Positions 1 through 64,000 of a stretch of 64,000 nucleotides of DNA are shown piece by piece (within the stretch, counting starts at the first letter, position 1; the number at the start of each line of letters is the position of its first letter). The translations under genes and the position numbers were made by a program. Under the pieces are notes generated by a model. It made no database searches and had not been told where the DNA came from. It was given only the letters and a program-made list of their open reading frames with translations. Where the stretch lies: the sequence record MT446416.1; one strand, 5' to 3'. This stretch comes from Escherichia virus TH47.

Positions 1-277
1 CTCCATAATCAAGTTTAACCAACTTACCACACAGATACCCAAAGTTTTCAGGCTTCGCATCTGAATAGAAGAAGTCAGTACTTAACTCTGAATTCAATGC
101 TAAAGCACACAACTCCACCCAAAATAAACCCCTATGTTGTACTGGCTTACAACGTTTCTGTACAGTTACTAGTCCAGTACATGATGACCACAAAGTAGGA
201 CAGATACCAGTATCACTACGCTTGGAGTACTGCATCCATCAGTCGATTACGAGTACGTAGTTTCATATAAGTTATCC

Positions 278-832
278 TTATTTCAAAGAATCATAGTAAG
301 CAGTGTCAAAGATTGGAGTCATAATAACATAGTCAATACGGTCAATGTAAGTTGAACTCCACATTTCTGGTTTGTCATAAAATTGACGCTCGCGTTCATT
401 CATACGAGTCAGTACTTCTTCCAATTTACTACGTGAAGCCATCAATGTATTACGCGATCCATAAGTGAAGTACTCAGTCCATTGATATTCATATTCAGTA
501 CTGATAGATTGAATAGTACCATCTTTGAAATGAGCTAAGGCATATCCTTTCTCTACAAAGTTATCAGGTGGAAGAACACCATCTGGATTAGTTTTCAATG
601 CTTTGGTTAACTTTTCTTTAATTTCAGTTAACGTGCATACTGAACGAATGTTCTTCAGGTTTGATACTTGAAAATCACTGTACTTTCCAAAGAAAAATAC
701 ACGCCAATCTTTAGGTTCATTATCAGATACGGTAATATTCGGATGATGGGCGAGTAAACGAAGAAGGCCAGCTTTGTGACCGTTAATGTAGATCTCATGG
801 ATGTGGTTAGCAGTTTTCTTAAAAGTAATCAT
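278..832 (-). CDS. hypothetical protein (184 aa)
   Basis: Long minus-strand ORF; GAGGAA Shine-Dalgarno about 6 nt upstream of ATG at 832; no recognised motif. Confidence 0.55.
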   Translation of the reverse strand: MITFKKTANHIHEIYINGHKAGLLRLLAHHPNITVSDNEPKDWRVFFFGKYSDFQVSNLKNIRSVCTLTEIKEKLTKALKTNPDGVLPPDNFVEKGYALAHFKDGTIQSISTEYEYQWTEYFTYGSRNTLMASRSKLEEVLTRMNERERQFYDKPEMWSSTYIDRIDYVIMTPIFDTAYYDSLK

Positions 833-879
833 GACAATTCCTCGATTGTGGGGATGAGAAGTTCATCCCCTTGATAAAC

Positions 880-907
880 ATTATACAGTACTGAATGAGT
901 TTGTCAA
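880..907 (-). promoter_or_regulatory. sigma70-type promoter (TTGACA-N16-TATAAT) with TTCAGTACTG in spacer
   Basis: Minus-strand reading gttgacaaactcattcagtactgtataat; -35 at 902-907, -10 at 880-885; upstream of gene 278..832. Confidence 0.55.
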
Positions 908-908
908 C

Positions 909-1289
909 TCAAAATAAATTCATTTCATGTGCGTATTGTGGTTCAAGATGCGATAAGTTTTTGAAGCTTTCTTTCAACTCAGCATCATCTACATACACCG
1001 TGCCTGGTACATTCCCCATAGTGAAACCTACCCACACAGTCATGTCACCAGTCCCTAAGCGTGGCATTGATAGCGAACCATCAGGTGAAACATCAAACGC
1101 TACACTGAAGTCATCAGTAACAACGTCATAACCATTTTCGAGAATAATACATCCACTATCTTTAAGCTTCTGAATGTGGATAGCAGCCTCTACAGCACGT
1201 TTGAAGTTATAGTAAGACTCTTTATCCTCAAACATTGATTGTTTAATCAGACGCTTGTTTAGCTCGGTTACTTTGTGCATTTGACGCAT
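909..1289 (-). CDS. hypothetical protein (126 aa)
   Basis: ORF tiles with neighbours on minus strand; start abuts stop of upstream gene. Confidence 0.5.
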   Translation of the reverse strand: MRQMHKVTELNKRLIKQSMFEDKESYYNFKRAVEAAIHIQKLKDSGCIILENGYDVVTDDFSVAFDVSPDGSLSMPRLGTGDMTVWVGFTMGNVPGTVYVDDAELKESFKNLSHLEPQYAHEMNLF

Positions 1290-1546
1290 TACTTATCCAT
1301 CTCCAACAGTTGTAGAATTTCATAAGAGCCTGGTGGTGCTGGATTCCTGATCTCAGGGAATTGAGTACTTTTAGGATTACCACCAGCATTAAATTCATCA
1401 AGTAATGATTCGAGTTCATTCCTATCATGAACAACAAACACGCAATATCCAGTACCTTCTTCAAGAACAGTAGTTGAACCCGCACAATCCCATACTGTAT
1501 CAATACATAATAATTCTTTAGTGTTTTTGTTACGCAATGCAAACAT
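1289..1546 (-). CDS. hypothetical protein (85 aa)
   Basis: Protein-like composition; preferred over overlapping 1243..1701 which is Cys/Trp/His-rich and junk-like. Confidence 0.45.
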   Translation of the reverse strand: MFALRNKNTKELLCIDTVWDCAGSTTVLEEGTGYCVFVVHDRNELESLLDEFNAGGNPKSTQFPEIRNPAPPGSYEILQLLEMDK

Positions 1547-1555
1547 ATATGTCTC

Positions 1556-1924
1556 CTATCGATTCGGCATATTCTTTCGTAGTCGCAAGAGAAATTCAAC
1601 CACTGACCATGTTGAAATGAAGGTAATATAAGTTGCCAAGAATCCGGTAAGAATAAATGCAACCAGCGTACTACCATTTGGTCCATCTGCTTTAATACCA
1701 ATTATACCATCAACTACAGTGAAACATGTAGCCATTAGCGTGTAGCAGACGTACAACACAAAGAAGAACTCATTCTCCATTGAAGGGTAGAAACGGTTAA
1801 ACACTTTATAAAATTTAAAGTACAGTAGGATTATACCAACAAAGACATAAAATGTAAACAGGGTTGTTATAATATATGAGATTAGGTTCAAATTATACAT
1901 ATTAACGCTCCGGTAAATTATCAC
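1556..1924 (-). CDS. small multi-pass membrane protein, tandem paralog 1 of 3
   Basis: Hydrophobic segments; C-terminus ...RLRKNMPNR resembles the ends of the next two ORFs; true start may be the internal Met at about 1900. Confidence 0.5.
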   Translation of the reverse strand: MIIYRSVNMYNLNLISYIITTLFTFYVFVGIILLYFKFYKVFNRFYPSMENEFFFVLYVCYTLMATCFTVVDGIIGIKADGPNGSTLVAFILTGFLATYITFISTWSVVEFLLRLRKNMPNR

Positions 1925-2249
1925 GTAAGGTTTTAATTCGATTATACAATTTCACTGAAACATTACCAAATATACCATATCCAAGTACTAAAATGTATGC
2001 AATAAGCATAGTAATAATTACTATAGTGCCAAAACTATAATGTACACTACTGATACCCAATGTAGTTTCAACGATTATTTGGGAAAGAGAAAGAATCAAA
2101 AGTACAACTACAATAGGATGATTTGGATACATCCTATTAAATAGTGTTTTGTACTTGAAGAAGCAAAGCACTCCACCAAATAAGAAGTAAACAATGTAAA
2201 TGCAAGCAACAGCATAGGCAAACACGTTAGTGTAATAAATCATTATCAA
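1902..2249 (-). CDS. small multi-pass membrane protein, tandem paralog 2 of 3
   Basis: Same size and topology as neighbours; C-terminus ...KTLRDNLPER. Confidence 0.5.
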   Translation of the reverse strand: MIMIYYTNVFAYAVACIYIVYFLFGGVLCFFKYKTLFNRMYPNHPIVVVLLILSLSQIIVETTLGISSVHYSFGTIVIITMLIAYILVLGYGIFGNVSVKLYNRIKTLRDNLPER

Positions 2250-2252
2250 TCC

Positions 2253-2591
2253 TTATTTTTCAGGGATATTAGAACGCCATACATCAAGGCGATGGATCAG
2301 CTCAAAAAACAACCATACTGGAAAGAAAGATATCATAACACCAAGTGATAACCCGGTCAATACCGATACCAGATTTAATTCATCAGTACTATATCCACAT
2401 ATCAGTACTTCTAATATTCCCCACGTACACGCACAGAATACCAAGAATGAAATCGGTGCATCATAATAGATACGTTCATATAAAGTAGTGTATCGGAAGA
2501 ATGCAATAATGTAGCAAAACATGAAATATACCCACATCAATGACACTACATAGAATGACACTTTATTAATTAATTCAAAATTTTGTTCCAT
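2253..2591 (-). CDS. small multi-pass membrane protein, tandem paralog 3 of 3
   Basis: Same size and topology; C-terminus ...DVWRSNIPEK. Confidence 0.5.
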   Translation of the reverse strand: MEQNFELINKVSFYVVSLMWVYFMFCYIIAFFRYTTLYERIYYDAPISFLVFCACTWGILEVLICGYSTDELNLVSVLTGLSLGVMISFFPVWLFFELIHRLDVWRSNIPEK

Positions 2592-2592
2592 T

Positions 2593-2901
2593 TTATACCT
2601 TCAAATATTCAGAAAATAATGCATGAGCTTCTTCTATATTCTTGAGATAATACATATGATATAGATTTGGTTGACCATTTTTATAACTTAAATCGAAGTA
2701 CTTTAAACTATGCACCTTCATGACAAAAACAAATAATGACTTAAAACCAATCTCACCGTACTTAATAAACAGTTCATCTAAATGAATGTAACTCTTAGTT
2801 TCAGATAATTCCTTCACATCAGCTTCAATTTCTTGTAAGCGAAGTTTACCGATTAAGTTTTCAAATGAACGCATGATGTTGTTCCTTATGCTGGTACACA
2901 A
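2593..2901 (-). CDS. hypothetical protein (102 aa)
   Basis: ORF in minus-strand gene series. Confidence 0.45.
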   Translation of the reverse strand: MCTSIRNNIMRSFENLIGKLRLQEIEADVKELSETKSYIHLDELFIKYGEIGFKSLFVFVMKVHSLKYFDLSYKNGQPNLYHMYYLKNIEEAHALFSEYLKV

Positions 2902-3299
2902 TTTTTTATAATGAATACACGTTTCATGAATGAACTTTCATATACGTACTTCAGTTTACCATTTTCACGCATACGATGAAACACATCTTTACCACTAGTA
3001 CTCCAGGTTGAACCAGTCTCTGTATCAACATTGTTCATAACACCAGATGTTACGTTCACCCCGTACTTGAAGCTAAAGGTACTACCTTCTTCTACCAGAG
3101 GGATTGGTGTACTACGTTCATGTTCCAGTACAAGTTTACTGCCGATGATGTTGTACGAAGTTAGATTGCATTTTAAAACACCCATCTCTTGTGCAGTTGG
3201 GTAATTCTTCTCAAACAAATCAGATACTTCATTTGCATAACAAACTGAACTAATCATCAGAAGTAATGAACTGATAGAACGGAAAATAACTTTTAACAT
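2886..3299 (-). CDS. secreted protein with N-terminal signal peptide (137 aa)
   Basis: N-terminus MLKVIFRSISSLLLMISSVCYANE is signal-peptide-like. Confidence 0.5.
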   Translation of the reverse strand: MLKVIFRSISSLLLMISSVCYANEVSDLFEKNYPTAQEMGVLKCNLTSYNIIGSKLVLEHERSTPIPLVEEGSTFSFKYGVNVTSGVMNNVDTETGSTWSTSGKDVFHRMRENGKLKYVYESSFMKRVFIIKNCVPA

Positions 3300-3333
3300 G
3301 TTTGCCTCCAGTAGTTGATGAAATGATTATAGC

Positions 3334-3366
3334 AAAAAGGGCCGACCGAAGTCAACCCTTTTTTTA
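3334..3366 (-). terminator. rho-independent terminator, conserved GGGUUGAC-UUCG-GUCGGCCC hairpin plus U-run
   Basis: Plus strand aaaaagggccgaccgaagtcaacccttttttt; on the minus transcript a stem with UUCG tetraloop followed by a U tract; lies just past the stop of 3364..3747. Confidence 0.55.
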
Positions 3367-3747
3367 TATTTTACATATTATGTCTGGTTTTGGCTTTTCA
3401 TTCTTTGGCTTTTCAAATGGATTTGGCTTAGGGGACTTTTTATCTTTGTCATCTTTAGCTTTCTTTTTGTTTTCTTTTTTATCCGATTTGTCAGCTTTGT
3501 CTTTCTTATCCTTGGAATCTTTGTCAGCTTTAGATTGTGGTTCCTCACATACAGCAGCTTTTGGCTCCGGCATATCACATGAGTTATCCACAGGTTTAAT
3601 GAACTCTTTACAGTTGTAGAAGTATAAACTTTCATTGGTAGTAAGATTGTGGAATCTAAAGGTATTTTCACCATTAGTATATACTTTCTTAGTACTCTCA
3701 ATATCATTACACATTGCAACCGTGTCACCGGAATTCATGCTCGACAC
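3364..3747 (-). CDS. hypothetical protein with Lys/Asp-rich C-terminal tail (127 aa)
   Basis: ORF; preferred over the overlapping 3378..3728 frame which is poly-Lys junk. Confidence 0.4.
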   Translation of the reverse strand: MSSMNSGDTVAMCNDIESTKKVYTNGENTFRFHNLTTNESLYFYNCKEFIKPVDNSCDMPEPKAAVCEEPQSKADKDSKDKKDKADKSDKKENKKKAKDDKDKKSPKPNPFEKPKNEKPKPDIICKI

Positions 3748-3976: not shown

Positions 3977-4013
3977 TGCATTACCTCTTATAAAAACCCT
4001 CTACAATATTTAC

Positions 4014-4046
4014 AAAAAAAAAGGTTGACCGAAGTCAACCTTTTAA
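4014..4046. terminator. rho-independent terminator, conserved GGUUGAC-UUCG-GUCAACC hairpin (A/T runs on both sides)
   Basis: aaaaaaaaggttgaccgaagtcaacctttt immediately past the stop of 4051..5580. Confidence 0.6.
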
Positions 4047-4050
4047 ATGT

Positions 4051-8774: not shown

Positions 8775-8999
8775 TCAATTTTTAGTCACTTTACAATTTG
8801 AATCTTTTTTGTACTGAACAATCACATTGTTCTTAAGGAAGATGATGGTCCCATAGGAACCTTGGGCTGCAACTTCAACAATATGGTTCTTATATGTTTC
8901 AGTATACCCTTCCATCTCGTTGATACACACTACATGATACTTTGGTTTAGCACATACAACAGTACTCAAGAATAGCAGTACTAGTACTAGATATTTCAT
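8775..8999 (-). CDS. small secreted protein (74 aa)
   Basis: Signal-like N-terminus MKYLVLVLLFLSTVVCA. Confidence 0.5.
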   Translation of the reverse strand: MKYLVLVLLFLSTVVCAKPKYHVVCINEMEGYTETYKNHIVEVAAQGSYGTIIFLKNNVIVQYKKDSNCKVTKN

Positions 9000-12177: not shown

Positions 12178-12235
12178 GTTTTATATCCTCAAGTTTAAGT
12201 GTTAAGTTTCAGACTACAAGAACCATTATACAGTA

Positions 12236-12478
12236 CTACGAACGTTTGTCAACATTTGTTTCTTCAATAAGCATAAGATAACTTAACACGAAGAGTAATA
12301 CAGATACAATGTCAATAACGGTGAAGCTTACTGGAATGATAATAGACACTAGAACGAGTGCCACGTTTAGCAAGAATACAGTAGTGATATCTACCAGCTT
12401 TCGTTTAGTGGCTACTGCTACTAGTGTAGGGTAGAACATAAACAATAATGCAACTACAAAACTCAATACTAGATACAT
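12236..12478 (-). CDS. small membrane protein (80 aa)
   Basis: Two hydrophobic segments. Confidence 0.45.
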   Translation of the reverse strand: MYLVLSFVVALLFMFYPTLVAVATKRKLVDITTVFLLNVALVLVSIIIPVSFTVIDIVSVLLFVLSYLMLIEETNVDKRS

Positions 12479-16183: not shown

Positions 16184-16211
16184 ATTATACAGTACTGATA
16201 TCTTATGTCAA
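16184..16211 (-). promoter_or_regulatory. sigma70-type promoter (TTGACA-N16-TATAAT) with CAGTACTG in spacer
   Basis: Minus-strand reading ttgacataagatatcagtactgtataat; followed by a long imperfect hairpin (16120..16171) in the leader. Confidence 0.5.
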
Positions 16212-19280: not shown

Positions 19281-20246
19281 TTAAAAATCTTCGAACTCAT
19301 AACCTTTTGTCTTAACCATCTTACGCAGTCGTTCCATTGCTTCAGAGTACTTACGGTGCAATGAAGAACGAGCAGTCATGACCTTACCCTTCTCATCTTC
19401 AAAACCACTCTCAATGATTTCTCGTAGCGTTTCTGGTTCAGAATAAGAACCAATACCATGTACACGTTCAATCAATTCACGGTCTTTGGCAGATAGGTTA
19501 CTCATCATTTCTGCAATACTTTGTACCAGTGGGGTACTGACAGTTTCTACGCCTAAGTTGTAATCAGGTTCAACTGAAGTAACAATGTCAGATAATGTAC
19601 TTTCTGAATCATTACTCATTTTCATATTCAATGCTACATAAGTGTTATTGTAAGTTAGACAATTCTTAACGTGTTGAATCTCAATACCAGTCTCTTTTGA
19701 CACCATCTCAGGAGTTGGGTATTTACCATGTTTCCTTTGATACTCTTCAACACAACGTTTCACATAAATGTTATTAACACTCATATAACGTGGGAAATGC
19801 ACTAGATAATTAGCATCTGCACTTTCGTTATAGATTGTCATGTACACAGTTGTTGTTGCATATGTAATGAACTTAACATTTTTGGTAGTGTCGAACGTAT
19901 GAATTGCTCGCATTAAACCTTCAACACCATAAGAAATCTTATCTTCAAATGGGATAAAACATGTACATTTACGTGCAACACTTACTACCATTGGATAGTT
20001 GTAGCGAACCAAAAGGTCAATGTTCTTTTCAACGTCAATACCATCACGCACTGCTTGGATGAGCATTTCATTCGTTATACCTTTAGGGCGAGTTAAACTG
20101 ATACCTGTTTTTGGTTTCTCAAACTTGTGACCGTCATGTTCTTCTTCATCAACCGAATCTAGAGCCTCTAAGACGTTGACTTCTTCACTAGCAAAACACT
20201 CATCCAGTACTTCTTCAAAAATTGCATTTAAATCAAGCTTTTTCAC
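19281..20246 (-). CDS. sigma70-family RNA polymerase sigma factor (321 aa)
   Basis: Region 2-like LVRYNYPMVVSVARK...FITYATTTVYMTIYNE and region 4 HTH-like LSAKDRELIERVHGIGSYSEPETLREI...ERLRKM. Confidence 0.7.
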   Translation of the reverse strand: MKKLDLNAIFEEVLDECFASEEVNVLEALDSVDEEEHDGHKFEKPKTGISLTRPKGITNEMLIQAVRDGIDVEKNIDLLVRYNYPMVVSVARKCTCFIPFEDKISYGVEGLMRAIHTFDTTKNVKFITYATTTVYMTIYNESADANYLVHFPRYMSVNNIYVKRCVEEYQRKHGKYPTPEMVSKETGIEIQHVKNCLTYNNTYVALNMKMSNDSESTLSDIVTSVEPDYNLGVETVSTPLVQSIAEMMSNLSAKDRELIERVHGIGSYSEPETLREIIESGFEDEKGKVMTARSSLHRKYSEAMERLRKMVKTKGYEFEDF

Positions 20247-31960: not shown

Positions 31961-32076
31961 ATATTATGGAGTATTTATATGTAAGAAAAATATCATTTTT
32001 GAGGTCAATATCAGAATTGCACTGATTATTCAGACTTACAAGGTCCGTGTTATACTCTTTTAACTAATCGACCTGA

Positions 32077-32169
<93 letters not shown>

Positions 32170-32170
32170 T

Positions 32171-32209
<39 letters not shown>

Positions 32210-32214
32210 AGCAC

Positions 32215-32583
<369 letters not shown>

Positions 32584-32627
32584 AATTGCTTTATAAGCTA
32601 CTGAATCGGGAATCACAACCTCCCCAT

Positions 32628-33145
<518 letters not shown>

Positions 33146-33154
33146 ATTTGTTTC

Positions 33155-33340
33155 CTATGAAATGAATGTAGCGTTAATTCCCATTATAAATGCAAATATA
33201 CCAAACAATATCAGACCGATTGGTACAAAGATCATAGATCTATTTCCATGTTTCGATAAAAATCGTTCAAGTATAATTAAACGTATTGATATAGGAACCA
33301 TTATAATAATATACAATATTGAAAGAATTAAAAGTTGCAT
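33155..33340 (-). CDS. small membrane protein (61 aa)
   Basis: Two hydrophobic segments. Confidence 0.45.
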   Translation of the reverse strand: MQLLILSILYIIIMVPISIRLIILERFLSKHGNRSMIFVPIGLILFGIFAFIMGINATFIS

Positions 33341-33366
33341 TTTAATTTCCTATTATCATTTCGTTT

Positions 33367-33439
33367 TGCGACTCTGGAGGAACTCGAATCCCCAACCAAT
33401 TAATTAACAGTTAATCGCACCACCAATTGTGCTACAGAG
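33367..33439 (-). tRNA. tRNA-Asn (anticodon GTT)
   Basis: Manual cloverleaf: acceptor GACTCTG/CAGAGTC, D-stem GCAC/GTGC, anticodon stem ATTAA/TTAAT with loop CTGTTAA, T-arm GGGGA-TTCGAGT-TCCTC, discriminator G. Confidence 0.7.
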
Positions 33440-33449
33440 TCATAATTAT

Positions 33450-34154
33450 TTACAAGCCATGTCTTTTCAAAAATCTAGCAAACACATTTTTGGAAGCACC
33501 ATAGCTTTCATATATACTAACTTTTTTCTCACCATTAGTCAAACGTTTTTTTATATCTTCTATGTTATCTTCTAAACGTTTTACGTTTGCAAATTTCTTA
33601 GATGGTATGTTATTTTTGGTTCTATAATTCAGTACTGAACCTGAACTGATATTCATTATTTTAGCAATTTCAGTATCTAACAAACCTTGGTTAATATATT
33701 CTTTTACCTTTTCATAATCAACTGATGTTTCACCACCCTTTGTATTTGACGGAGGCTTGACCATTTTTTGTGAACACTCAACACTACAATATTTTGTATA
33801 TGATTTCACTTTAGTATGTCTACGGGAAAATTCCGTATTACAACAAGCACATACAAATGAATCATATCGTGCTTGTACTCCATTCTTATGTGTTTTATAA
33901 CGATGTTCATCAACATGAAGTATTTGTAAATTAGACAAATCATCATTTGTGAAATCATTATCAATGTGGTCTGCTTCTTCAGACTCAGTTAAATATCTAC
34001 CTTCTTGTACTGCTAATAGATATCTGGCATATTGAGTACTGCTTCTATCAGTTGGAGAATTATAAAGTATTACAGTTCTTCTACCTTCAGGGTTTATCTG
34101 TATATACCCATTCTTCCAATCATTACTATATGGATATTCTAATTTTATTTTCAT
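33450..34154 (-). CDS. HNH homing endonuclease with C-terminal HTH-like domain (234 aa)
   Basis: HNH core EEADHIDNDFTNDDLSNLQILHVDEHRYKTH; Cys cluster CACCNTEF...CSVEC. Confidence 0.7.
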   Translation of the reverse strand: MKIKLEYPYSNDWKNGYIQINPEGRRTVILYNSPTDRSSTQYARYLLAVQEGRYLTESEEADHIDNDFTNDDLSNLQILHVDEHRYKTHKNGVQARYDSFVCACCNTEFSRRHTKVKSYTKYCSVECSQKMVKPPSNTKGGETSVDYEKVKEYINQGLLDTEIAKIMNISSGSVLNYRTKNNIPSKKFANVKRLEDNIEDIKKRLTNGEKKVSIYESYGASKNVFARFLKRHGL

Positions 34155-34507
34155 TATTTTATTTCAAAGTTTGTGAGCCATCTGTGAGTCGAACACAGTA
34201 CCTAACGATTCGTATAATCTATAGTTTTCACTATAGTACGGACTATATCATCATCCCATAGGGATGCCGGACGCTAATGATGTATTACACAGTAAGATCG
34301 TACTGTACCATCTAGTCTCTGCACCTTCCCAATACGCTTATTGGGCTTGGCTCAGGATTGTCATCACCATTACGTGTTAAGATTTCCCTGAATTCATCCA
34401 GTTTTTCAATCACCATTACTGATGAAAGTCACCATTGTCGATGAGTCGTTTGCTCTAACCACCGTGAGCTAATGGCCCGATTTGGGTGTTCCTAGTGTTT
34501 CATTATT

Positions 34508-34721
<214 letters not shown>

Positions 34722-34733
34722 AAATTAATTATA

Positions 34734-35126
<393 letters not shown>

Positions 35127-35219
35127 ATCACCAACTTTAATTAAAAAAATGGATGGTTACGCTTTTAAACGCCGCTGTTAATTCAGCTTTATAACCACCC
35201 GTTTTAACTTGCCTTTCGG

Positions 35220-35414
35220 CTACCTTGACGTGGGGGCGTACAGGCTACTAAAAGCAACTTCTGTAAACATATTTCCACACCTTACCCTTTTAAATAAAAG
35301 TCCATCCGGTTTTCCAGTTTGGTGAAGGACTGTCACCTCTAGTTTAAACCTGCTAGTCAAGTAATAATTGCCTATCGTCCAATTATCAAACCCGTCTAGG
35401 TTAACATTCACCAC
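35220..35414 (-). CDS. uncertain small ORF (64 aa) within a GC-richer ORF-poor stretch
   Basis: ggaag SD-like sequence upstream; could instead be part of a non-coding RNA. Confidence 0.3.
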   Translation of the reverse strand: MVNVNLDGFDNWTIGNYYLTSRFKLEVTVLHQTGKPDGLLFKRVRCGNMFTEVAFSSLYAPTSR

Positions 35415-35489
35415 TTCCTAGAGTGCCAGAGATCTTGTTCTGGATTTCATCGACGTAACTTACACCATATACGTCTGATTGTGGAATTC

Positions 35490-35514
35490 ATTATATCAGT
35501 ACTGAACTATTTAG

Positions 35515-35518
<4 letters not shown>
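35490..35518 (-). promoter_or_regulatory. sigma70-type promoter (TTGACT-N17-TATAAT) with TCAGTACTG in spacer
   Basis: Minus-strand reading ttgactaaatagttcagtactgatataat; near-identical to the promoter at 35903..35930. Confidence 0.5.
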
Positions 35519-35893
<375 letters not shown>

Positions 35894-35898
35894 TATAC

Positions 35899-36101
<203 letters not shown>

Positions 36102-36105
<4 letters not shown>

Positions 36106-36266
36106 ATTCGTACCAGTAGTTCAATTAAGTACATTTCATATGCTGGATCGTTGATAAGTTTATCATACAGATGTGACTCTGAAATGAATTCCCAATGATA
36201 TTTTCGCCATTTACCAAAACCTGCATATCTAAAATTAATGTCATTCATCCATTCTTCATGTGTCAT
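36102..36266 (-). CDS. small protein, MTHEEW tandem paralog 2 (54 aa), not in track
   Basis: Begins MTHEEWMNDINFRY...; 165-nt unit identical in length to its neighbours; ATGA overlaps. Confidence 0.4.
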
Positions 36267-36427
36267 AATCGTACCATTATTTCAATAAAGAACCACGGAT
36301 ATACTTCATGGTTTATAAGTTTATCGTATTCTGCTGGGTCTGATATAATTTCCCAATGATATTTTCGCCAACTACCTATACCCGAATATCTAACATTAAT
36401 GTCATCCATCCATTCTTCATGTGTCAT
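36263..36427 (-). CDS. small protein, MTHEEW tandem paralog 1 (54 aa), not in track
   Basis: Hand translation MTHEEWMDDINVRYSGIGSWRKYHWEIISDPAEYDKLINHEVYPWFFIEIMVRL. Confidence 0.4.
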   Translation of the reverse strand: MTHEEWMDDINVRYSGIGSWRKYHWEIISDPAEYDKLINHEVYPWFFIEIMVRL

Positions 36428-36465
36428 GGTTTTTAACCTTTAATTAAAATTGTCAAAAATGTATT

Positions 36466-37004
<539 letters not shown>

Positions 37005-37024
37005 ATCCTTAATATTATATTTTA

Positions 37025-37096
37025 TAAAGGGCCGGAGAATCGAACTCCGATTGGATTCTTAGAAGGAATCTGTTTTATCCATTAAACTAGCCCCTC
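37025..37096 (-). tRNA. tRNA-Arg (anticodon TCT)
   Basis: Manual fold: D-stem GTTT/AAAC, anticodon stem GATTC/GAATC with loop CTTCTAA, T-arm CGGAG-TTCGATT-CTCCG; acceptor GAGGGGC/GCCCTTT needs two G-U pairs including 1:72. Confidence 0.5.
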
Positions 37097-37156
37097 AGTA
37101 CTAATAATTATATCACATCTTTGTGGTCTGTCCCAGAAATTGTGATATAAAAGTTG

Positions 37157-37583: not shown

Positions 37584-37712
37584 TTGCCATCTCTCTGTTA
37601 TTTATCTTTAGTAATTATAGCATAAAAACACATCATGTCAAATGTTTTATCTTTATTTTAAGTGATACACAGTACTGAAAATATAATAAAGAAAAATTTC
37701 CAGTACTGAGTT

Positions 37713-46955: not shown

Positions 46956-47486
46956 TTAATCGAGTATAGTAACTTCAATCAAACGAATTTCGATGAATTC
47001 GTTTTCAGTTTCCCATGATGAACCTAATTTCTTATTAAGTTCAGTTTTAACATCACTTTTAAATTTTCCCATAGTATTAGGAATAATTTGTTTGGTTAGT
47101 TTGTCATAACCACAATAAAACATAGGTTTCTCCCTTCGAGATATTAGAACAACAAAATCCTTTGGATATGCAGGTATATTATGCATCACTTCATGAATGC
47201 ACTCAGTACTTGAATCTTGTACTTTGTACATTACATTAAGTTTACCTTTGAAAGTGCTAATCATATCAACAATAATACCTTTACCAGATTTAAGTAAAGT
47301 TCCATTCTTTGTATGAGAACAATAGAATACCTCATCACCAATATTAGGATAGTACAAATTAAATTCTAATTCTTCCTTTGATGACTGACGTTGAAATTTC
47401 ATTACACGTTCAGTATAGGTGGGGTAGTTCTTCATGTTCAAAAGAATATCTCTCGTAGTAAGTGTGATATAACTGGCATAGTCCAT
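46956..47486 (-). CDS. hypothetical protein (176 aa as listed; start probably internal Met near 47435)
   Basis: Annotated start overlaps the methyltransferase gene by 49 nt. Confidence 0.5.
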   Translation of the reverse strand: MDYASYITLTTRDILLNMKNYPTYTERVMKFQRQSSKEELEFNLYYPNIGDEVFYCSHTKNGTLLKSGKGIIVDMISTFKGKLNVMYKVQDSSTECIHEVMHNIPAYPKDFVVLISRREKPMFYCGYDKLTKQIIPNTMGKFKSDVKTELNKKLGSSWETENEFIEIRLIEVTILD

Positions 47487-49327
47487 CCATTCCCAAGCAT
47501 TTTATATGCTTGTGTCTTACTAGACACTTTAAAGAAATCTTCAGGAACGCCCTGTAATTTACAACATTCTACTACACTTAAGTGTCTATAGTCAATATTT
47601 CTTTTACCATTCTCTAATAGATATTGACGATTAATCATTGGGTCACGAAACACCAATTGTCGTCTTGATTTATTAAAGTACTGGTTGCAATCACCACCCT
47701 TAAAATAGTTAGCATCTATACAGTACGAAGCGGTCCTGTCAGTGTACCAACCATCTTCAATGATATCTTGAAGTTTAGGGGCATTTGATAATGCAGGTGG
47801 TATAAAAAGCTTATCAGTACTGCACCAGTAGTATCTCTGCCTGAAGTGAGGCGTATAATGCTGGGAATTTATCAGTACTGGTGTCATCTCAAGAACACTA
47901 TTAATATATTGCTTGAAATCTTCTTTCATTTTAACATTCTCGAACAGTACTTTCAAGTCTGGATTGAGACTTTTTATGTGCTCATAAATGTCAACCATTG
48001 TATGAAACAACATTCCACGCGGATCATTTATTCCACCCTGTTTACCTGCAACAGACCAAGATTGACAATTGTGCACAACTATGTTATTTGCGGTATATGT
48101 ATTGTCAACGGCAACTTCAAAATTATATACGGTTTTCCATTCACCTGTCGAAATACTTGTTTTTATACCTTTAACCCATGAATAATTTTCGTCATAAAAA
48201 GCTTCCTCTTTTTTGGGTTTGTCTTTTTTATATGATAAAACATAATACGGTTTTTGGTTTACAATTCGTCCCTCAATAACTTTAGTTTTTTCTGGTTCGG
48301 TAAGGCTTATGTTGGAATGTCTTCCGTAAACGTTCATTATTAATTGTTGGACACCTAATACACAGTCTATTGATGTTGTAGTGAATTTATAACAATTACT
48401 ATCAATATGACCATCTGCATCAAAATATCCATCAAGGAATGCTTTTTGGTTCTGTACACATTCATTGAATAAATCGGGATGAACTTTCTTATTAGATGCA
48501 CCTTTACCCATTTGTTCACAGAATTCAACGAGTTCTTTTGAACATATATAAAATTTATATGATGTTCTTTCTTTGACATAATTATATTTCATGTTCATAC
48601 CTTCAAAACACGAAATCAATTCATCAAATTCATCATGTGCACAACAGATGAAAACTCTATACTGGTAACTATTCTTTCTATTATTACGCTTTACTTTATA
48701 AGTCCATCCGTCACCCATAAAGCGTCCCATAAAATACCAGAATTTTTCATCTTTTGATGATTTACTAGATTCAATTGATTTAACATTACAAAGAAAATGT
48801 TCAGATGTTAATTCGTGTGCCTCAACCCATTCAGGTTCAGTGAAGGATCGTTCAGATTGTCTAATTCTGTTATTCCAGCTAGACGACATTTTTCTAGCAT
48901 AAAATGGATGATTATCAGTGCATTCAATTGGGATATGACCTTGACCAGTTATAATACGGGTTGGTGCTTTTTTAACACCTGTACTCAATACTGGATGATA
49001 TTGTCCAGTATGTGTTAGTACCATGTCACCAACTTGAATGTCTTTAATGTCTTTATGACCTTTATCGGTCATTATCATTGTTCCTTCCGTGAAGCACGGG
49101 AACCCTCCCATGAGAAGGTCAATTTTATCCCACTCAATATCCCATTCTCTCCATTTAGTTACATCACCCAATTGGGTGATATCAGGAAAGTTAGCTTGAG
49201 ATTCAGCTATTGCGTACTTGTCAATTTCGGATGAATAATATTTTTCAACAGGGATACCAGCATCTTTTAATGCCATGTATCCCACACTCATCCCATTAAA
49301 AAGAGATAGTACTCGGATAGGTTTCAT
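47438..49327 (-). CDS. C5-cytosine DNA methyltransferase precursor containing an intein (629 aa)
   Basis: MTase motifs LSLFNGMSVG (I), GGFP-[intein]-CQSWSVAGK (PCQ, IV), LFENV (VI), RQRYY, MLGNGW (X); the extein sequence is contiguous only after removing residues 78-420. Confidence 0.75.
   Translation of the reverse strand: MKPIRVLSLFNGMSVGYMALKDAGIPVEKYYSSEIDKYAIAESQANFPDITQLGDVTKWREWDIEWDKIDLLMGGFPCFTEGTMIMTDKGHKDIKDIQVGDMVLTHTGQYHPVLSTGVKKAPTRIITGQGHIPIECTDNHPFYARKMSSSWNNRIRQSERSFTEPEWVEAHELTSEHFLCNVKSIESSKSSKDEKFWYFMGRFMGDGWTYKVKRNNRKNSYQYRVFICCAHDEFDELISCFEGMNMKYNYVKERTSYKFYICSKELVEFCEQMGKGASNKKVHPDLFNECVQNQKAFLDGYFDADGHIDSNCYKFTTTSIDCVLGVQQLIMNVYGRHSNISLTEPEKTKVIEGRIVNQKPYYVLSYKKDKPKKEEAFYDENYSWVKGIKTSISTGEWKTVYNFEVAVDNTYTANNIVVHNCQSWSVAGKQGGINDPRGMLFHTMVDIYEHIKSLNPDLKVLFENVKMKEDFKQYINSVLEMTPVLINSQHYTPHFRQRYYWCSTDKLFIPPALSNAPKLQDIIEDGWYTDRTASYCIDANYFKGGDCNQYFNKSRRQLVFRDPMINRQYLLENGKRNIDYRHLSVVECCKLQGVPEDFFKVSSKTQAYKMLGNGWTMPVISHLLREIFF
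48068..49096 (-). mobile_element. LAGLIDADG homing-endonuclease intein (about 343 aa) inserted at the catalytic Cys of the methyltransferase
   Basis: Insert begins CFTEGTMIM, ends NIVVHN followed by Cys; LAGLIDADG-like blocks FMGRFMGDGW and FLDGYFDADGHI. Confidence 0.7.
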
Positions 49328-59021: not shown

Positions 59022-59024
59022 GTA

Positions 59025-59795: not shown

Positions 59796-61013
59796 TTACT
59801 TGTTAGCTTTTTCAGCAATTTCACGAAGAGTATCTTCGAGTTCATGAGAGAGTTTTGCGATTTCAATCTTAGCACGCTCACGCTCTTCTTTACCTTTCTT
59901 CTCTTCAATCAGTACTGCTTCGATACTATCGATCATTGTTTTATGTACATTACGCAATGTTTTAATATCCACGATACCACGATTATTTGCTTTAGCAGCA
60001 TCCAACATGTTAGTTGCTACCATTTTAGAGTTTACTTCGAGTAAACGGTTAGTTTCATTGTCAATCAGATTACCCAACTCATTGTCTTTACGTTGACGTT
60101 CGGAAATCAACTGTTCAGCCAATTGTGATTTCCATGCTGGAATAACAACTGATTTCAAATCCTCAAACTTAGAAACAGTGTTGAGGTTTACTTTCTTCAT
60201 ACTCATCAGGCGAGGACCACTCAGTTCACACATCATGATAAGACGACGAATCTTATCTTCCTGCTTAGAAAGAGCTTCACAAATCATCTTTTGCTCCTGG
60301 ATTGCAAAAGAATCAACGTCAGGGTTCGCTTGCATTGCTACCAATTCAGCATCTTGTGCTTTGGTAACTTCTTCCAACTCAACTAACGTATCACGCAGTT
60401 CAAAGAGATAGTTTTTGTTTTCGTTGTAAGCAGTGTCTAGCCATGCACATTCCCCATGCTGGCGGTTAATACCAACCTGAAGAGTGTTCATGATTTCATC
60501 AATTTGTTCTTTACTGTTTTTGTACTGATCGCCAACTTTCTGTTTAGCATTAACAAAGAGTTTTTTGACCCAGCCTACGATTGATTTATCATCCTGTAGA
60601 CTATCAATATCAACTGCACGTGTCAATGTCAAGATAGTAGTAATAGACTTACCGAATTCGGTATTATCATCAGTGACGTTAACTTTTGACATGATTTCAT
60701 CAGCCAAACGTCCTACACCTGCCCCAGCAGTGGTTCCGATGGTATTAATATTCTGCACAGTTAAAGCCATACTGTTACCTTTGGTATCTTTCAGTACTGG
60801 AAGTGACTTGGACTGTTGTTCGAAGATATCAGTTGCGTCAATTGTGTGTGCTGCTGTTTTGGTAGTACGTTTGGCAGTTTTGGTTGCTTTGGCTTGTTTA
60901 ACTGTTGCTTTTTTCGGATTGATTTCTTTCTCGGACATTGTGTATTCCTCAGTTAATTTAAGATAGTGTTGCTCAGTGATAAACATTCTACAGGCAACAC
61001 TCAGTACTGTCAA
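59796..61013 (-). CDS. TelA-like (toxic anion resistance family) protein, tentative (405 aa; start may be MSEKEI at about 60938)
   Basis: About 380-aa helical protein with Lys-rich N-terminus; family assignment from overall resemblance only. Confidence 0.35.
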   Translation of the reverse strand: MTVLSVACRMFITEQHYLKLTEEYTMSEKEINPKKATVKQAKATKTAKRTTKTAAHTIDATDIFEQQSKSLPVLKDTKGNSMALTVQNINTIGTTAGAGVGRLADEIMSKVNVTDDNTEFGKSITTILTLTRAVDIDSLQDDKSIVGWVKKLFVNAKQKVGDQYKNSKEQIDEIMNTLQVGINRQHGECAWLDTAYNENKNYLFELRDTLVELEEVTKAQDAELVAMQANPDVDSFAIQEQKMICEALSKQEDKIRRLIMMCELSGPRLMSMKKVNLNTVSKFEDLKSVVIPAWKSQLAEQLISERQRKDNELGNLIDNETNRLLEVNSKMVATNMLDAAKANNRGIVDIKTLRNVHKTMIDSIEAVLIEEKKGKEERERAKIEIAKLSHELEDTLREIAEKANK

Positions 61014-61020
61014 CTACTTT

Positions 61021-62148
61021 TTACTCTTTATTTCCATACGCCAGGTTACGAATGATATTGGCAGTATCTTCATCAACTGCTTTACCAGTTTGAGCTTGCA
61101 AACGGCCTATGATCAATGGGATAGTGATAGTTTGAATATCAATCATTCGGCTCATATCAATCTGATACTGCTTACTAACACCAACAATACTAGTTTCAGT
61201 CATTGCTGTTGAAATCCCCATTTTCATAATACGTTCAAGCGTCAGTTCATATTCAAATGGATCTTCCAAACGACGAATTGCATATTCACACCCAATCTTA
61301 CCATACTCAAGTTCATTTTTGATTTCACGAACTTCATCACGAATTTCAGTGAATAAAGTCGTAATACCACTAAACTTATTCGTATCGTACTTCACTGCTT
61401 CATTCAATGCTTTCATTACTTTTGGTAAATCAGTTGGCTGTACTTTGATATCAGCTTTCCCAAACAACTTCTGTGTAAATGTAGGCTTCAAAGGGAATAA
61501 CTTTTCCAGTGCTGTTGTAAGGTTACCCATTAATAAACGGATATAATCACTATGCTGCTGTAATGCTGCGTTTAAATCCAACTGACGCTCGGAGATCTTC
61601 TGAATCTTCACACCAACTTCTTGTGCACATACTGGTAGGTTTACATACCAATCCAGAACCTTCACCGGATCTTTTTTAATTGTATCTGGAAAATCCATCC
61701 AACGTTCAATGTCAGCAACCATATCACATTCAGGGTCGATAGGTTTCTTCTTAAGAACAATCGGAGCCGGAACTTCTGGTGAAGTAGCTACTGCTGCCAT
61801 GTTTGGACGAAGTTTACCTTCCTTCCAGTCTCGGTACTCCTTCTCTAACGGAGGAATTGGGAGATCTGGAACGATTCTCACATTTGAGAAATGAATTTTA
61901 TCTTTCATTAAATCCATTACCTTCAAACGGCGATTATCAAAATAGATCTCGTCAAGTGAAAGTGAACGTGTGTCGAAATGTGGATTTCCCAGTGAATCGT
62001 ATGTTCTGTCCACAACAATGGTATACATATATTTTCGATTCGATGAACGGTCATACTGTTTTAACAGTGAGTTAAGAACGTAGTTGAAGTTAAATTCTTT
62101 GATTTCGACTTCTTTACCGTTGTCAATGAAAAAATATTTTCCTTTCAT
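61021..62148 (-). CDS. hypothetical protein (375 aa)
   Basis: Long ORF adjacent to the TelA-like gene. Confidence 0.55.
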   Translation of the reverse strand: MKGKYFFIDNGKEVEIKEFNFNYVLNSLLKQYDRSSNRKYMYTIVVDRTYDSLGNPHFDTRSLSLDEIYFDNRRLKVMDLMKDKIHFSNVRIVPDLPIPPLEKEYRDWKEGKLRPNMAAVATSPEVPAPIVLKKKPIDPECDMVADIERWMDFPDTIKKDPVKVLDWYVNLPVCAQEVGVKIQKISERQLDLNAALQQHSDYIRLLMGNLTTALEKLFPLKPTFTQKLFGKADIKVQPTDLPKVMKALNEAVKYDTNKFSGITTLFTEIRDEVREIKNELEYGKIGCEYAIRRLEDPFEYELTLERIMKMGISTAMTETSIVGVSKQYQIDMSRMIDIQTITIPLIIGRLQAQTGKAVDEDTANIIRNLAYGNKE

Positions 62149-62231
62149 TACTGACCTCTTAATTAATTAAAATTGATACGATACGTACATTCTACATACA
62201 CACGATGTATTTGTCAAACCATTTTTTAAAA

Positions 62232-62264
62232 GAAAAAAGGACGCACCTTAGTGCATCCTTTTGT
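62232..62264. terminator. rho-independent terminator
   Basis: aaaaaaggacgcaccttagtgcatccttttg hairpin between 62248..63066 and 61021..62148. Confidence 0.45.
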
Positions 62265-63066
62265 TACTCTTGTCCTTGTACCACACAAATGTTTTTACTG
62301 GTGGGTACTTTTCATTCTTCGGTGGCTCCGGCATATCATACACAGTTGCATTTCTGAATTTCAAAATGTATGAATCCATTAAACGAATTATACAATAGTT
62401 CATGCACTTTTGTGCACGTTCTTTCCAAAAATGTTTATATGGTTCTGGACACCCAAGATAATCCAATTTGTACATACCCATAGCAGCTTGCATAAAGCGT
62501 TGGGCAGAGAACTTACGCTTGTCTACCTTACTAGCTCGATGCTGGTCACATGTCCAACTAGAGATACCAGGGAGATGACAGAATAAATCAAAACTCACCA
62601 TACTATCAAAGTACTTGTTATGACCGTTCAACTCTCCATAAAATACCGCTTCGGAAACAGTTTCATATAGTGAGTAATTTGTATGTATATGTTCATTGTC
62701 AAATATAGCTTTTAGATCTTTGTAAGTTTCTGGTACTGGTGGCTCTGGTAAAACTTCACCGAACGTCTCTAAGCACCAAATCTTCCACAAGCCTTTCGTA
62801 AATTTTACTTCAAGTTCTTTATCGCTGTCAATATAAAAAGTTTTCTCATTGATAAAAACTTTTCGTGCCATGTATGCTTTGAATACCGCATCAGGGTCGA
62901 TATCTTCACGTTTGATATCGTCCCATCCTTTACCGATTCGAGAAATTTCGAATCGTCTCATATACATCCTACATGCCAAATCTTTAGTTGTACTACGATG
63001 ATACTTGTCGTCTTGATGAAGTTTGGTAGTCTCATGGAGAGATTTAAGCATGTTTAAAATTCTCAT
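62248..63066 (-). CDS. hypothetical protein (272 aa)
   Basis: Long ORF. Confidence 0.55.
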   Translation of the reverse strand: MRILNMLKSLHETTKLHQDDKYHRSTTKDLACRMYMRRFEISRIGKGWDDIKREDIDPDAVFKAYMARKVFINEKTFYIDSDKELEVKFTKGLWKIWCLETFGEVLPEPPVPETYKDLKAIFDNEHIHTNYSLYETVSEAVFYGELNGHNKYFDSMVSFDLFCHLPGISSWTCDQHRASKVDKRKFSAQRFMQAAMGMYKLDYLGCPEPYKHFWKERAQKCMNYCIIRLMDSYILKFRNATVYDMPEPPKNEKYPPVKTFVWYKDKSNKRMH

Positions 63067-63743
63067 CGTAACACCAAATACTTCCCATCTTTACCTACTA
63101 CATACTGATTACCGCTACGTAGGACGCTATAACTTTCACCTAGTACCGAACTTAAGCGAGATGTATCTACCTGCGTATCGTTCGATAGAAGCTGTTTTAC
63201 GTATGCTTCTGACACAAATCCACTACCAGTACTGTAATGTAGTTTACCATATGCAGTGTTTAGTGCAAGCATGTGACCTTCTTTAACAACAGATACACCA
63301 GCAAAGTCTAAAAATTCACTGATGGATTTAGGAATACCCAAATCGATACGTTGTTGAATTTCATCAAAATCAACATCAATCGGATCATTCACACCATAAA
63401 GCTGAATCTTCCAGCCAGGATTTGGGCAAATGTTTTCAATAGTTTTGATAAGACGAAGTAGGTTTTCTGGAAATTCCGCATCACGTTCCATTTCAACGAA
63501 TACCTGATAACGACCATCCAGGTTAGGTGTTTCAGCAGCTTCAGTATCAACTGCATCAATTGGAGACTTCTCAATAAAAGATGACAGGTCATATGCAGCA
63601 TCAAAGTTGTTTAGTACTTGAAACATAACAACGATATTACTATCTTCAATCTTAGGAGTATATTCATCTACACTAATAATAGGATGAATCAAATCCTTTA
63701 GTACTTGTGGACGTAAACCTTGTTCATTTAGTTTCTTTTTCAT
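63063..63743 (-). CDS. hypothetical protein (226 aa)
   Basis: Long ORF; 4-nt overlap with the downstream gene. Confidence 0.55.
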   Translation of the reverse strand: MKKKLNEQGLRPQVLKDLIHPIISVDEYTPKIEDSNIVVMFQVLNNFDAAYDLSSFIEKSPIDAVDTEAAETPNLDGRYQVFVEMERDAEFPENLLRLIKTIENICPNPGWKIQLYGVNDPIDVDFDEIQQRIDLGIPKSISEFLDFAGVSVVKEGHMLALNTAYGKLHYSTGSGFVSEAYVKQLLSNDTQVDTSRLSSVLGESYSVLRSGNQYVVGKDGKYLVLR

Positions 63744-63994
63744 TGCATACCACCTTGTTGTACATCATCAGATACTTCTACATCTAAATCAACATCTTCA
63801 CCAGTAATTGGATCATCTGATGGTTCTTGTGCATTCATAGGATTACTATTGAATTCTGAAGCCATTAGTTTGTATTCATCAAAACTTTCAGGGTTAATTA
63901 AGTTTCTGGGAATTTGTACACGAACCAATAGAACTGGAATTCGTTCATTTTTTGGAATGCGAACAGAACCAGATTGCGTAGCCACACTCTTCAT
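63740..63994 (-). CDS. hypothetical acidic protein (84 aa as listed; start at the window edge is uncertain)
   Basis: ORF at the window end. Confidence 0.4.
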   Translation of the reverse strand: MKSVATQSGSVRIPKNERIPVLLVRVQIPRNLINPESFDEYKLMASEFNSNPMNAQEPSDDPITGEDVDLDVEVSDDVQQGGMQ

Positions 63995-64000
63995 ATCAGC

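Follow-up and report, generated by a model that had tools for sequence, protein, structure and literature searches.

Introduction

The closest described analogue of the sequence word studied here is HIP1 (GCGATCGC), a short palindrome found in cyanobacteria many-fold above expectation, in coding and non-coding DNA, in all reading frames and at about one copy per gene or denser. HIP1 sites are conserved between genomes beyond expectation and are held by selection (PMC5861425). The inner words nested within HIP1 are themselves enriched and are methylase sites, and one-letter deviations from the full word are biased outward (PMC4390886). HIP1 has also been linked to natural transformation, with methylated sites stimulating recombination or uptake (bioRxiv 10.1101/2024.09.10.611283). 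Here we show that the hexamer AGTACT is a highly iterated palindrome held by selection at the DNA level throughout the genomes of Rak2-like jumbo phages, among them the source of a 64,000-nucleotide stretch of Escherichia virus TH47 (record MT446416.1) that we call the window. The window has a G+C content of 34% and comes from an Asteriusvirus (Rak2-like) jumbo coliphage: a 12-kilobase (kb) piece of it matched phage Ecwhy_1 at 96% identity and phages 121Q and PBECO4 at about 88-90% identity.

AGTACT has in common with HIP1 its selection between genomes, its nested structure and the outer position of its one-letter deviations. Four features that mark HIP-type words (many-fold excess, presence in all frames and in both coding and non-coding DNA, conservation beyond background, and enriched inner words) were found for AGTACT. 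Unlike HIP1, AGTACT resides in a lytic phage, has a hexamer as its unit and a different, AT-richer sequence, coexists with near-total avoidance of other palindromes, is densest in terminal repeats and is built into early promoters; no cognate methylase was found for it. The link of HIP1 to natural transformation has no obvious counterpart in a phage. By analogy, AGTACT would best be filed as a viral variant of the HIP-type phenomenon.

Several other kinds of dispersed word invite comparison. Chi, KOPS and DNA-uptake sequences are also short words present above chance across whole genomes, genes included; they are read by a machine that tracks or binds DNA, and they can mark self. These words are asymmetric and skewed by strand or orientation, whereas AGTACT is a palindrome without skew, except for a one-strand variant in a single early region of related genomes. 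The stoperators of mycobacteriophages and the C1 operators of phage P1 are repressor sites dispersed over a phage genome and, like AGTACT, also stand in early promoters. However, they number in the tens and are asymmetric, mostly intergenic and orientation-biased, whereas AGTACT has about 900 palindromic copies per genome, 90% of them in genes. The avoidance of restriction sites by phages likewise reflects selection at the DNA level on short palindromes that is visible in codon choice. It is extreme in the phages studied here, in which GCGC is absent, but it has the opposite sign: AGTACT is seven-fold enriched in these phages and depleted in T4, T5 and PA5oct. Finally, well-studied primases read a single-stranded trinucleotide followed by a cryptic 3' base (T7 5'-GTC, T4 5'-GTT or 5'-GCT, Escherichia coli 5'-CTG). 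The trinucleotide suffices for recognition, the context defines the primer, and primers of the T4 type are 5 nucleotides (nt) long.

AGTACT is the most over-represented hexamer of the window

An earlier note, made from the letters of the window, had claimed more than 40 AGTACT hexamers, most of them within the octamer CAGTACTG, and had considered this octamer far too frequent for chance. The excess proved real and the hexamer count an understatement. AGTACT occurred 156 times, or once per 410 base pairs (bp), against 17.7 ± 3.8 copies in dinucleotide shuffles; the zero-order expectation of 21.9 copies gives a 7.1-fold excess. The octamer occurred 40 times against 0.75 ± 0.94 in shuffles, none of which held more than 4. 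In a census of all hexamers AGTACT ranked first (z = 46, 30 and 18 under Markov models of order 1, 2 and 3), as did CAGTACTG among all octamers (z = 61, 38 and 23), which upholds the claimed enrichment. The individual sites that had been named were nearly all correct within about 15 nt, those at about 14700 and 21540 being AGTACT without the C..G flanks.

The octamer is not the usual form of the word, contrary to what had been supposed: both the C and the G flank were present at only 26% of the AGTACT hexamers in the window. In three Mimasvirus and Eneladusvirus samples the octamer made up 9 of 112, 3 of 57 and 1 of 44 sites, a weak C..G preference. Hence, the conserved unit is the hexamer, and CAGTACTG is a refinement of Asteriusvirus and Alcyoneusvirus. 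Flank information was limited to positions -1 and +1, and a few intergenic sites form perfect palindromes of 14-16 bp.

Under a maximal-order Markov model, the excess was assigned stepwise to GTAC, then to AGTAC and then to AGTACT. This stepwise collapse implies that the enrichment is nested, and in the window it rises from 2.3-fold for GTAC through 7-fold for AGTACT to 55-62-fold for CAGTACTG. One-letter variants that keep the GTAC core (NGTACN) were enriched 1.2-3.3-fold, whereas variants of the inner positions had ratios near 1 (roughly 0.2 to 2). The half-word CAGTA without a following C was not enriched (62 copies versus 55 expected), and the two flanks of GTAC were positively associated with each other (odds ratio 2.5). 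Non-palindromic GTACT was about two-fold enriched on sense and antisense strands alike, with 100 antisense and 80 sense copies in the window.

Sites are kept by selection on DNA

Most sites in the window fell within genes, with 140 in coding DNA and 16 touching intergenic DNA, in proportion to the 10.3% of the window that is intergenic. Coding sites occupied all three reading frames (58/31/51). When codons were shuffled synonymously, which retains both the proteins and the codon usage, 33.3 ± 5.6 coding AGTACT were expected against the 140 observed (z = 19), and 2.0 copies of CAGTACTG were expected against 30. Serine-threonine dipeptides were encoded as AGT-ACT in 59 of 115 cases (51%), where 15.9 (14%) were expected, and in the other two frames the site was formed at 28 of 71 and 50 of 124 opportunities (about 40%). 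The dipeptides able to host the site (ST, VL and QY) were 1.5-fold enriched but their reverses were not, which implies that protein sequences have been shaped too. Together, the dinucleotide and synonymous shuffles, the dipeptide test and the Markov census rule out codon usage, peptide motifs and dinucleotide composition as the cause of the excess. Since about half of the synonymous opportunities are used and even dipeptide content has shifted, whatever reads the site must be important to the phage. The bending of codon choice towards the site is plain at positions 8961..8988, where a signal-peptide coding stretch, Leu-Val-Leu-Val-Leu, is written as CTAGTACTAGTACTG and holds three sites in 28 bp.

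Conservation between genomes gave the same picture. Between the window and 121Q, at about 80% identity, 80 of 118 sites were shared (68%), compared with 42% for all hexamers. Gains and losses of sites relative to 121Q were balanced (38 versus 35), with no dominant substitution. Synonymous third positions inside sites were identical in 129 of 148 cases (87%), compared with 71% for the same codons outside sites (p = 7e-6). These comparisons show that AGTACT sites are kept by purifying selection at the DNA level. A role as recombination hot spots found no support in a low-power comparison, in which the ends of homology blocks lay no nearer to sites than expected (median 181 bp for Ecwhy_1 and 128 bp for 121Q, versus about 145 bp).

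The excess follows the phage lineage

The ratio of observed to expected AGTACT (O/E) was similarly high across relatives of the source phage. It was 7.4 in Ecwhy_1; 7.6, 9.7 and 5.2 in three regions of 121Q; 5.1 in RaK2 (Klebsiella), 8.2 in GAP32 (Cronobacter) and 6.7 in CBB (Pectobacterium); and 6.5 in Serratia phage BF and 7.2 in XbC2, a Mimasvirus reported on Xanthomonas. Among the comparators, the ratio was 0.12 in PA5oct, a more distant relative on Pseudomonas, 0.35 in T4 and 0.15 in T5. Acinetobacter phage ME3 was left out of this comparison because its sampled stretch is one giant repetitive gene. The excess thus spans four genera (Asteriusvirus, Alcyoneusvirus, Mimasvirus and Eneladusvirus; O/E 5-10) on five or six host genera. 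High ratios over four genera and varied hosts, together with low ratios in PA5oct, T4 and T5, imply that the trait is tied to the lineage of the phage and not to its host. Synonymous opportunities for the site were used at 23-64% throughout the four genera, in early, middle and structural regions alike, compared with 0-7% in PA5oct, T4 and T5. Full-text searches of the literature (papers on 121Q, PBECO4, RaK2, CBB, Sharanji and fEgEco12, and on over-represented phage palindromes) found no earlier report of an AGTACT excess.

The earlier note had reasoned that enrichment of a palindrome in a phage, where palindromes are usually avoided, points to positive selection. The background of avoidance proved to be severe. 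GCGC was absent from the window, where 55 copies were expected, and from the whole of 121Q, where 295 were expected, and 29 of the 64 hexamer palindromes had no copies in the window. Every genome with an AGTACT excess lacked GCGC entirely and had 23-31 of the 64 hexamer palindromes, mainly GC-rich ones, without copies. PA5oct, T4 and T5 showed no such pattern. No comparator examined avoids palindromes as thoroughly as these genomes do, and AGTACT is their single exception; a seven-fold, selected excess is unexpected in a phage purged of nearly all other restriction-type palindromes.

That GCGC is wholly absent suggests that even one copy would be lethal, for instance through a GCGC nuclease encoded by the phage or its host. 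CCGG, GGCC and CGCG were only partly depleted in Rak2-like loci. In the pooled loci of the clade (289 kb), GATC, CATG and CTTA/TAAG were also strongly depleted, and TAAATA/TATTTA was depleted two-fold (191 versus 385). TAAATA forms the core of ATAAATA, a T4-like late-promoter motif that has been reported for CBB and GAP32, and the depletion presumably avoids stray late promoters.

Sites crowd into terminal repeats and stand within early promoters

The whole 121Q genome holds 903 AGTACT (7.6-fold) and 194 CAGTACTG. At short range, sites were somewhat more evenly spaced than chance would place them. The coefficient of variation (CV) of gaps in the window was 0.92, with a largest gap of 1804 bp against 2278 ± 494 bp under random placement. 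Across stretches of 40-64 kb the CV was 0.79-0.97 against 0.99 for random placement, the largest gap was below the random expectation in five of six loci, and almost no gap exceeded 2 kb. We found no helical or otherwise regular arrays of sites, apart from a small excess of 20-21-bp spacings in a tally that counts homologous loci twice. At the scale of the genome, density was uneven (CV 1.18).

The densest regions were the terminal repeats, with 138 sites in the 21-kb repeat of fEgEco12 (L021:1-20993), whose genome ends have been determined experimentally (PMC13070987), and 143 in the 22.5-kb repeat of CBB (L022:27525-49980). Their density of about 6.5 sites per kb, or one per about 150 bp, compares with about 2.6-3 per kb elsewhere. 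Terminal repeats hold arrays of tiny genes, each with its own near-consensus, strong sigma-70 promoter, and a region of 121Q at about 134-155 kb is terminal-repeat-like. The window is itself an early-gene region: of its 137 predicted open reading frames (ORFs), mostly small, 131 are on the minus strand, and its 37 strong, near-consensus sigma-70-like promoters are all on the minus strand, with none on the plus strand.

At these promoters the site has a preferred position. In the early region of 121Q (134-155 kb), AGTACT stood 1-2 bp before the -10 hexamer in 22 of 28 promoters, and in this genome 23 of 34 promoter-associated sites stood there. The same was true of 7 of 15 promoters in the CBB terminal repeat. 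The flanks of promoter sites varied by genus (cAGTACTg versus gAGTACTt) while the position remained constant, which speaks for the hexamer having a role there.

In the window, 7 of the 37 strong promoters hold AGTACT, 6 of them directly against the -10 box. The type example is the early promoter TTGACA-N16-TATAAT at 880..907 (minus strand, as are all that follow), in which cAGTACTg ends one base before the -10 hexamer (site 887-892). Promoters of the same class lie at 12225..12252 (site 12232-12237), at 16184..16211 (site 16191-16196) and, as TGGACA-N17-TATAAT, at 34728..34756 (site 34736-34741), just upstream of tRNA-Ser. Two paralogous promoters follow, TTGACTaaatagttcAGTACTgaTATAAT at 35490..35518 (site 35498-35503) and TTGACTaaatagttcAGTACTgTATAAT at 35903..35930 (site 35910-35915). 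In the seventh, at 60985..61013 upstream of a TelA-like gene, AGTACT is fused to the -35 box (TTGACAGTACTG). The suggestion that AGTACT is a promoter element thus holds in part: the site occurs in the spacer of strong promoters at a fixed position relative to the -35 and -10 boxes, but it is not concentrated in intergenic DNA. With 90% of sites in genes, equal to the coding share, a promoter element cannot be the main explanation.

Two further observations concern the neighbourhood of the terminal repeats. In 121Q, positions 135,200-137,200 (L016:200-2200) are 2 kb of non-coding DNA with about 25 AGTACT, mostly as AGTACTGAAT, plus a run of TAGACGGCT-like iterons; this stretch is probably where the genome physically ends, or else an origin. 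Immediately beyond the terminal repeat, fEgEco12 (L021:21000-26300) and 121Q (155,502-159,569) have tightly packed ORFs of about 70 amino acids. This array (4-5 kb) contains no AGTACT and has GTAC only at the neutral level, so it is either exempt from the genome-wide pressure or recently acquired.

One strand of an early region is free of ACT

In Asteriusviruses the word changes its form over part of the early region. Positions 161,804-169,313 of 121Q (NC_025447; L016:26804-34313; 7,511 bp) contain no ACT on the sense strand, where the genome mean is one per 52 bp, and fEgEco12 has a one-strand run without ACT of 8,293 bp (L021:29020-37311). These runs are 144-160 times the mean spacing, compared with 25 times for the next most extreme run free of any trinucleotide. 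The stretch covers about 18 consecutive small early genes, and its threonine codons in 121Q include 75 ACA and no ACT. Scans of 10 of its proteins against Pfam and NCBIfam returned no Pfam match and no DNA-binding candidate. In fEgEco12 it lies 8 kb inside the left terminal repeat and is preceded by a 5-kb segment free of AGTACT.

Within this stretch, AGTACT is replaced by AGTACA. In the 121Q stretch 41 copies are spread over all three frames, where synonymous shuffling leaves 13.3 ± 3.2. They keep the C..G flanks, and TGTACT is absent from that strand. At 5.4 per kb, AGTACA is about twice as dense as AGTACT usually is (2.6 per kb), such that GTACT summed over both strands comes to 5.4 per kb in the stretch and 5.2 per kb elsewhere. 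Sharanji (L019) and PBECO4 (L020) showed the same pattern, with 34-35 of the 41 AGTACA sites conserved, and so did the fEgEco12 subgroup despite only about 56% protein identity in this region. Selection for the motif therefore persists even where its exact form is forbidden, and some process in Asteriusviruses reads ACT on one strand only.

Both ends of the stretch fall inside genes, and along it lie several transcription units, with several promoters and a terminator; in a scan for promoters and terminators, its ends matched neither. A regional property of the DNA fits this layout better than a property of messenger RNA. The ACT-free stretch was found only in Asteriusvirus (four genomes), with none in the CBB regions examined or in the window.

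Candidate readers of AGTACT

The reading that we tentatively favour, while giving it somewhat less than an even chance, is that AGTACT is the recognition word of a sequence-specific DNA reader that has two-fold symmetry and is encoded by the phage lineage. Acting on duplex DNA, this reader would be either a protein that binds as a dimer or an orphan DNA methyltransferase, as proposed for HIP1; two-fold symmetry, nested enrichment and an operator-like position at promoters point to these two kinds. It would need dense coverage, meeting a site about every 400 bp overall and about every 150 bp in terminal repeats. Binding or methylation at the site against the -10 hexamer could gate transcription of the immediate-early sigma-70 promoters, and the coverage might serve to mark or coat the phage's own DNA or to time its early promoters. 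Taking as observed the enrichment, its DNA-level nature, the selection, the clade restriction, the density gradient and the promoter placement, we infer the kind of reader, its encoding by the phage and the purpose of its coverage.

Several results weigh against a duplex reader of this kind. No reader was found: the 14 Pfam families of the window include no classical operator-binding fold, and Pfam and NCBIfam scans of 134 window ORFs gave no DNA-binding candidate. The methylases of the clade comprise a DNMT3-like C5 enzyme, a PF05869 Dam-type enzyme and, in two genera, an N4-cytosine type, and their specificity is not readable from sequence. The intein-bearing C5 methylase, which the earlier note had put forward, has the catalytic domains of mammalian DNMT3A/B/C as its closest solved relatives (E = 3e-23, full length). 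This kinship fits the CpG methylation reported for RaK2 DNA (PMC3622015), and AGTACT contains no CpG. The N4-cytosine-type enzyme GAP32_152 is confined to Mimasvirus and Eneladusvirus, and its homologues carry no specificity names. PF05869 (121Q gp417, CBB_72) is the one methylase common to Asteriusvirus and Mimasvirus, in a family with 2,125 phage records, but a close homologue outside the clade (43% identity) belongs to a genome without enrichment (2 AGTACT versus 2.9 expected). A HTH_37 regulator adjoining the phage sigma factor occurs in Mimasvirus only. In addition, the one-strand AGTACA form is twice as dense in the ACT-free stretch, for which counting words strand by strand is simpler than a dimer on duplex DNA, and a duplex reader does not account for the need for about 900 sites. 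As background to the methylases, DNA of fEgEco12 was cut as predicted by ten common enzymes (PMC13070987).

Counting by strand leads to a second reading, which we consider possible, if on the unlikely side. The word would be the single-strand (A/T)GTACT, read on each strand separately and most plausibly the preferred start site of the primase of the clade, a DnaG-type enzyme (gp19 in 121Q) whose zinc ribbon is separate; an arrangement of this kind has been reported for group 2.2 jumbo phages (PMC7824862). Minimal recognition would be 5'-ACT-3' plus a cryptic 3' T, and a template AGTACT would yield the primer pppGUACU, whose 5 nt match primers of the T4 type. A palindrome would then be the cheapest way of placing one site on both strands. 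The long one-strand stretches without ACT in 121Q and fEgEco12 speak for this reading, as does AGTACA, which is TGTACT on the other strand and stands there at doubled density, conserved in Sharanji, PBECO4 and the subgroup at about 56% identity. So do the enrichment of non-palindromic GTACT on both sense and antisense strands, the locally even gaps with almost none above 2 kb, and the restriction of the trait to a clade independent of host.

Other points weigh against a primase start site. Known primases need the trinucleotide only, and no genome is known to be enriched for primase sites; nor is any known primase site palindromic, and the ACT-free stretch is the one observation that ties AGTACT to such sites. 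Reading by strand does not require a palindrome, yet the flanks of GTAC are positively associated. It also does not account for the conserved position against the -10 box. The ban on ACT may be unrelated, merely forcing AGTACT to change, and it is seen in Asteriusvirus but not in the CBB regions examined.

We are rather doubtful of a more far-reaching form of this idea, namely that the lineage has written into its genome a dense code read strand by strand, with (A/T)GTACT as the engagement mark for a phage machine, most plausibly the primase. AGTACT would then be the two-strand form of the mark, and the early region, free of ACT on one strand and with the word doubly dense on the other, would enforce engagement on one strand only. 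Examples of such engagement would be replication in one direction, or a displaced strand that stays unprimed over a long distance just inside the terminal repeat. If this is true, the lineage would offer the first case of a genome moulded in its entirety, protein sequences included, by what its own replication enzyme prefers to read. Explanations beyond all those weighed here retain a small but appreciable share of the probability.

It is improbable that the abundance of AGTACT is a by-product of mutation and repair, as in Elhai's model of HIP1, in which methylation-dependent short-patch mismatch repair converts near-matches into the word. The nested structure and the one-letter deviations at outer positions are the very pattern behind that model (PMC4390886), and these phages encode several methylases. 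However, no single-substitution neighbour of AGTACT is depleted in the way that CTWGG is in E. coli (AGTATT and AATACT had O/E of 0.8-1.2), and the differences from relatives show no dominant substitution. The signature of very-short-patch (VSP) type repair is thus absent, and we rejected it. The maintenance of AGTACA where AGTACT is forbidden is hard to reconcile with a drive towards AGTACT, which cannot yield a selected AGTACA. Synonymous positions within sites are also conserved, although a strong drive could mimic that.

A signal in RNA is very improbable. Sequence-specific RNases with sites of 3-5 nt exist, such as MazF and T4 RegB, and AGUACU or GUACU could be a processing or decay site, in which case the early messages, whose sense strand wholly lacks ACU over about 18 consecutive genes, would be immune to an ACU-cutting RNase. 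Yet GTACT is about as common antisense as sense, the motif is still selected on the non-transcribed strand of the ACU-free stretch, that stretch begins and ends inside genes, and an RNA signal gives no reason for a palindrome.

We see scarcely any chance that the sites serve a host factor. One candidate is the nucleoid-occlusion protein SlmA; phage DNA loaded with its sites would block host division. The SlmA-binding consensus GTGAGTACTCAC, a palindromic site that is likewise scattered over a genome, has AGTACT at its core (PMC3020112). Cells infected by the related phage Sharanji become filamentous, and this phage has no known division inhibitor (PMC11895373); the hosts of the clade belong almost without exception to the Enterobacterales. 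However, SlmA requires G1, T2, a purine at position 3, A4 and G5 on both halves of a 12-bp palindrome (PMC3020112), whereas the flanks of phage sites run T/A, T, C from the outside inward, with purines at only 30% of position 3 and G at 12% of position 1. The required flanks are thus missing and even disfavoured, and GTRAGYRCTYAC has no copies in the window, 121Q, RaK2 or GAP32, so SlmA sites were rejected. More generally, a phage of the clade that was reported on Xanthomonas still has the excess, and the unrelated coliphages T4 and T5 are depleted in AGTACT.

The remaining suggestions of the earlier note, a target of the intein-containing methylase or homing-endonuclease sites, have next to no chance of being right: the window does encode a C5 methylase interrupted by a Hint/LAGLIDADG intein (47438-49327), as well as two HNH_3/NUMOD4 genes, but the methylase resembles DNMT3 and fits CpG methylation (PMC3622015), and about 900 sites per genome, conserved across four genera, show no link to mobile genes and are missing from the intein itself.

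Whatever its reader, the word gives a direct handle on function in a large, little-understood clade where no function is known for more than 80% of the genes; genome marking, coating, priming and early-promoter control are the candidate functions. For HIP1 of cyanobacteria, the role of which has been under debate for 30 years, it provides a viral counterpart that is tractable. Digestion with ScaI (AGTACT), RsaI (GTAC) and TatI (WGTACW) becomes informative, as does methylome sequencing, and any recoding of these phages, which are therapeutic candidates, or synthetic-genome work on them should keep AGTACT sites.

Other features of the window and its relatives

The Pfam scan of the window's proteins matched 14 families only, including two HNH_3/NUMOD4 endonucleases, TelA, a sigma-70-family factor (gene at 19281-20066), an exoribonuclease and the C5 methylase, whose gene is split by the intein. 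The intein (48067-49095) is missing from Ecwhy_1 and 121Q. Four tRNA genes (Thr, Asn, Ser and Arg) lie within 32001-37097.

The most extended forms of the site are intergenic. The longest is the 16-bp perfect palindrome TATTCAGTACTGAATA at 32509..32524, and a second extended palindrome, ATTCAGTACTGAAT, stands 121 bp from it at 32631..32644. Both have TAGACG in front and fall within 32390-32663. This intergenic segment spans about 270 bp, contains no convincing ORF and lies upstream of both a strong promoter and tRNA-Thr; it may be a degenerate tRNA-like or regulatory element. A pair of intergenic CAGTACTG sites, 31 bp apart, occupies 37671..37707. Elsewhere in the clade, positions 117,000-131,300 of 121Q (L015:18099-32265) carry 14 RCC1-like paralogues in tandem, which are annotated 'DNA condensation' and run on the other strand from their neighbours.

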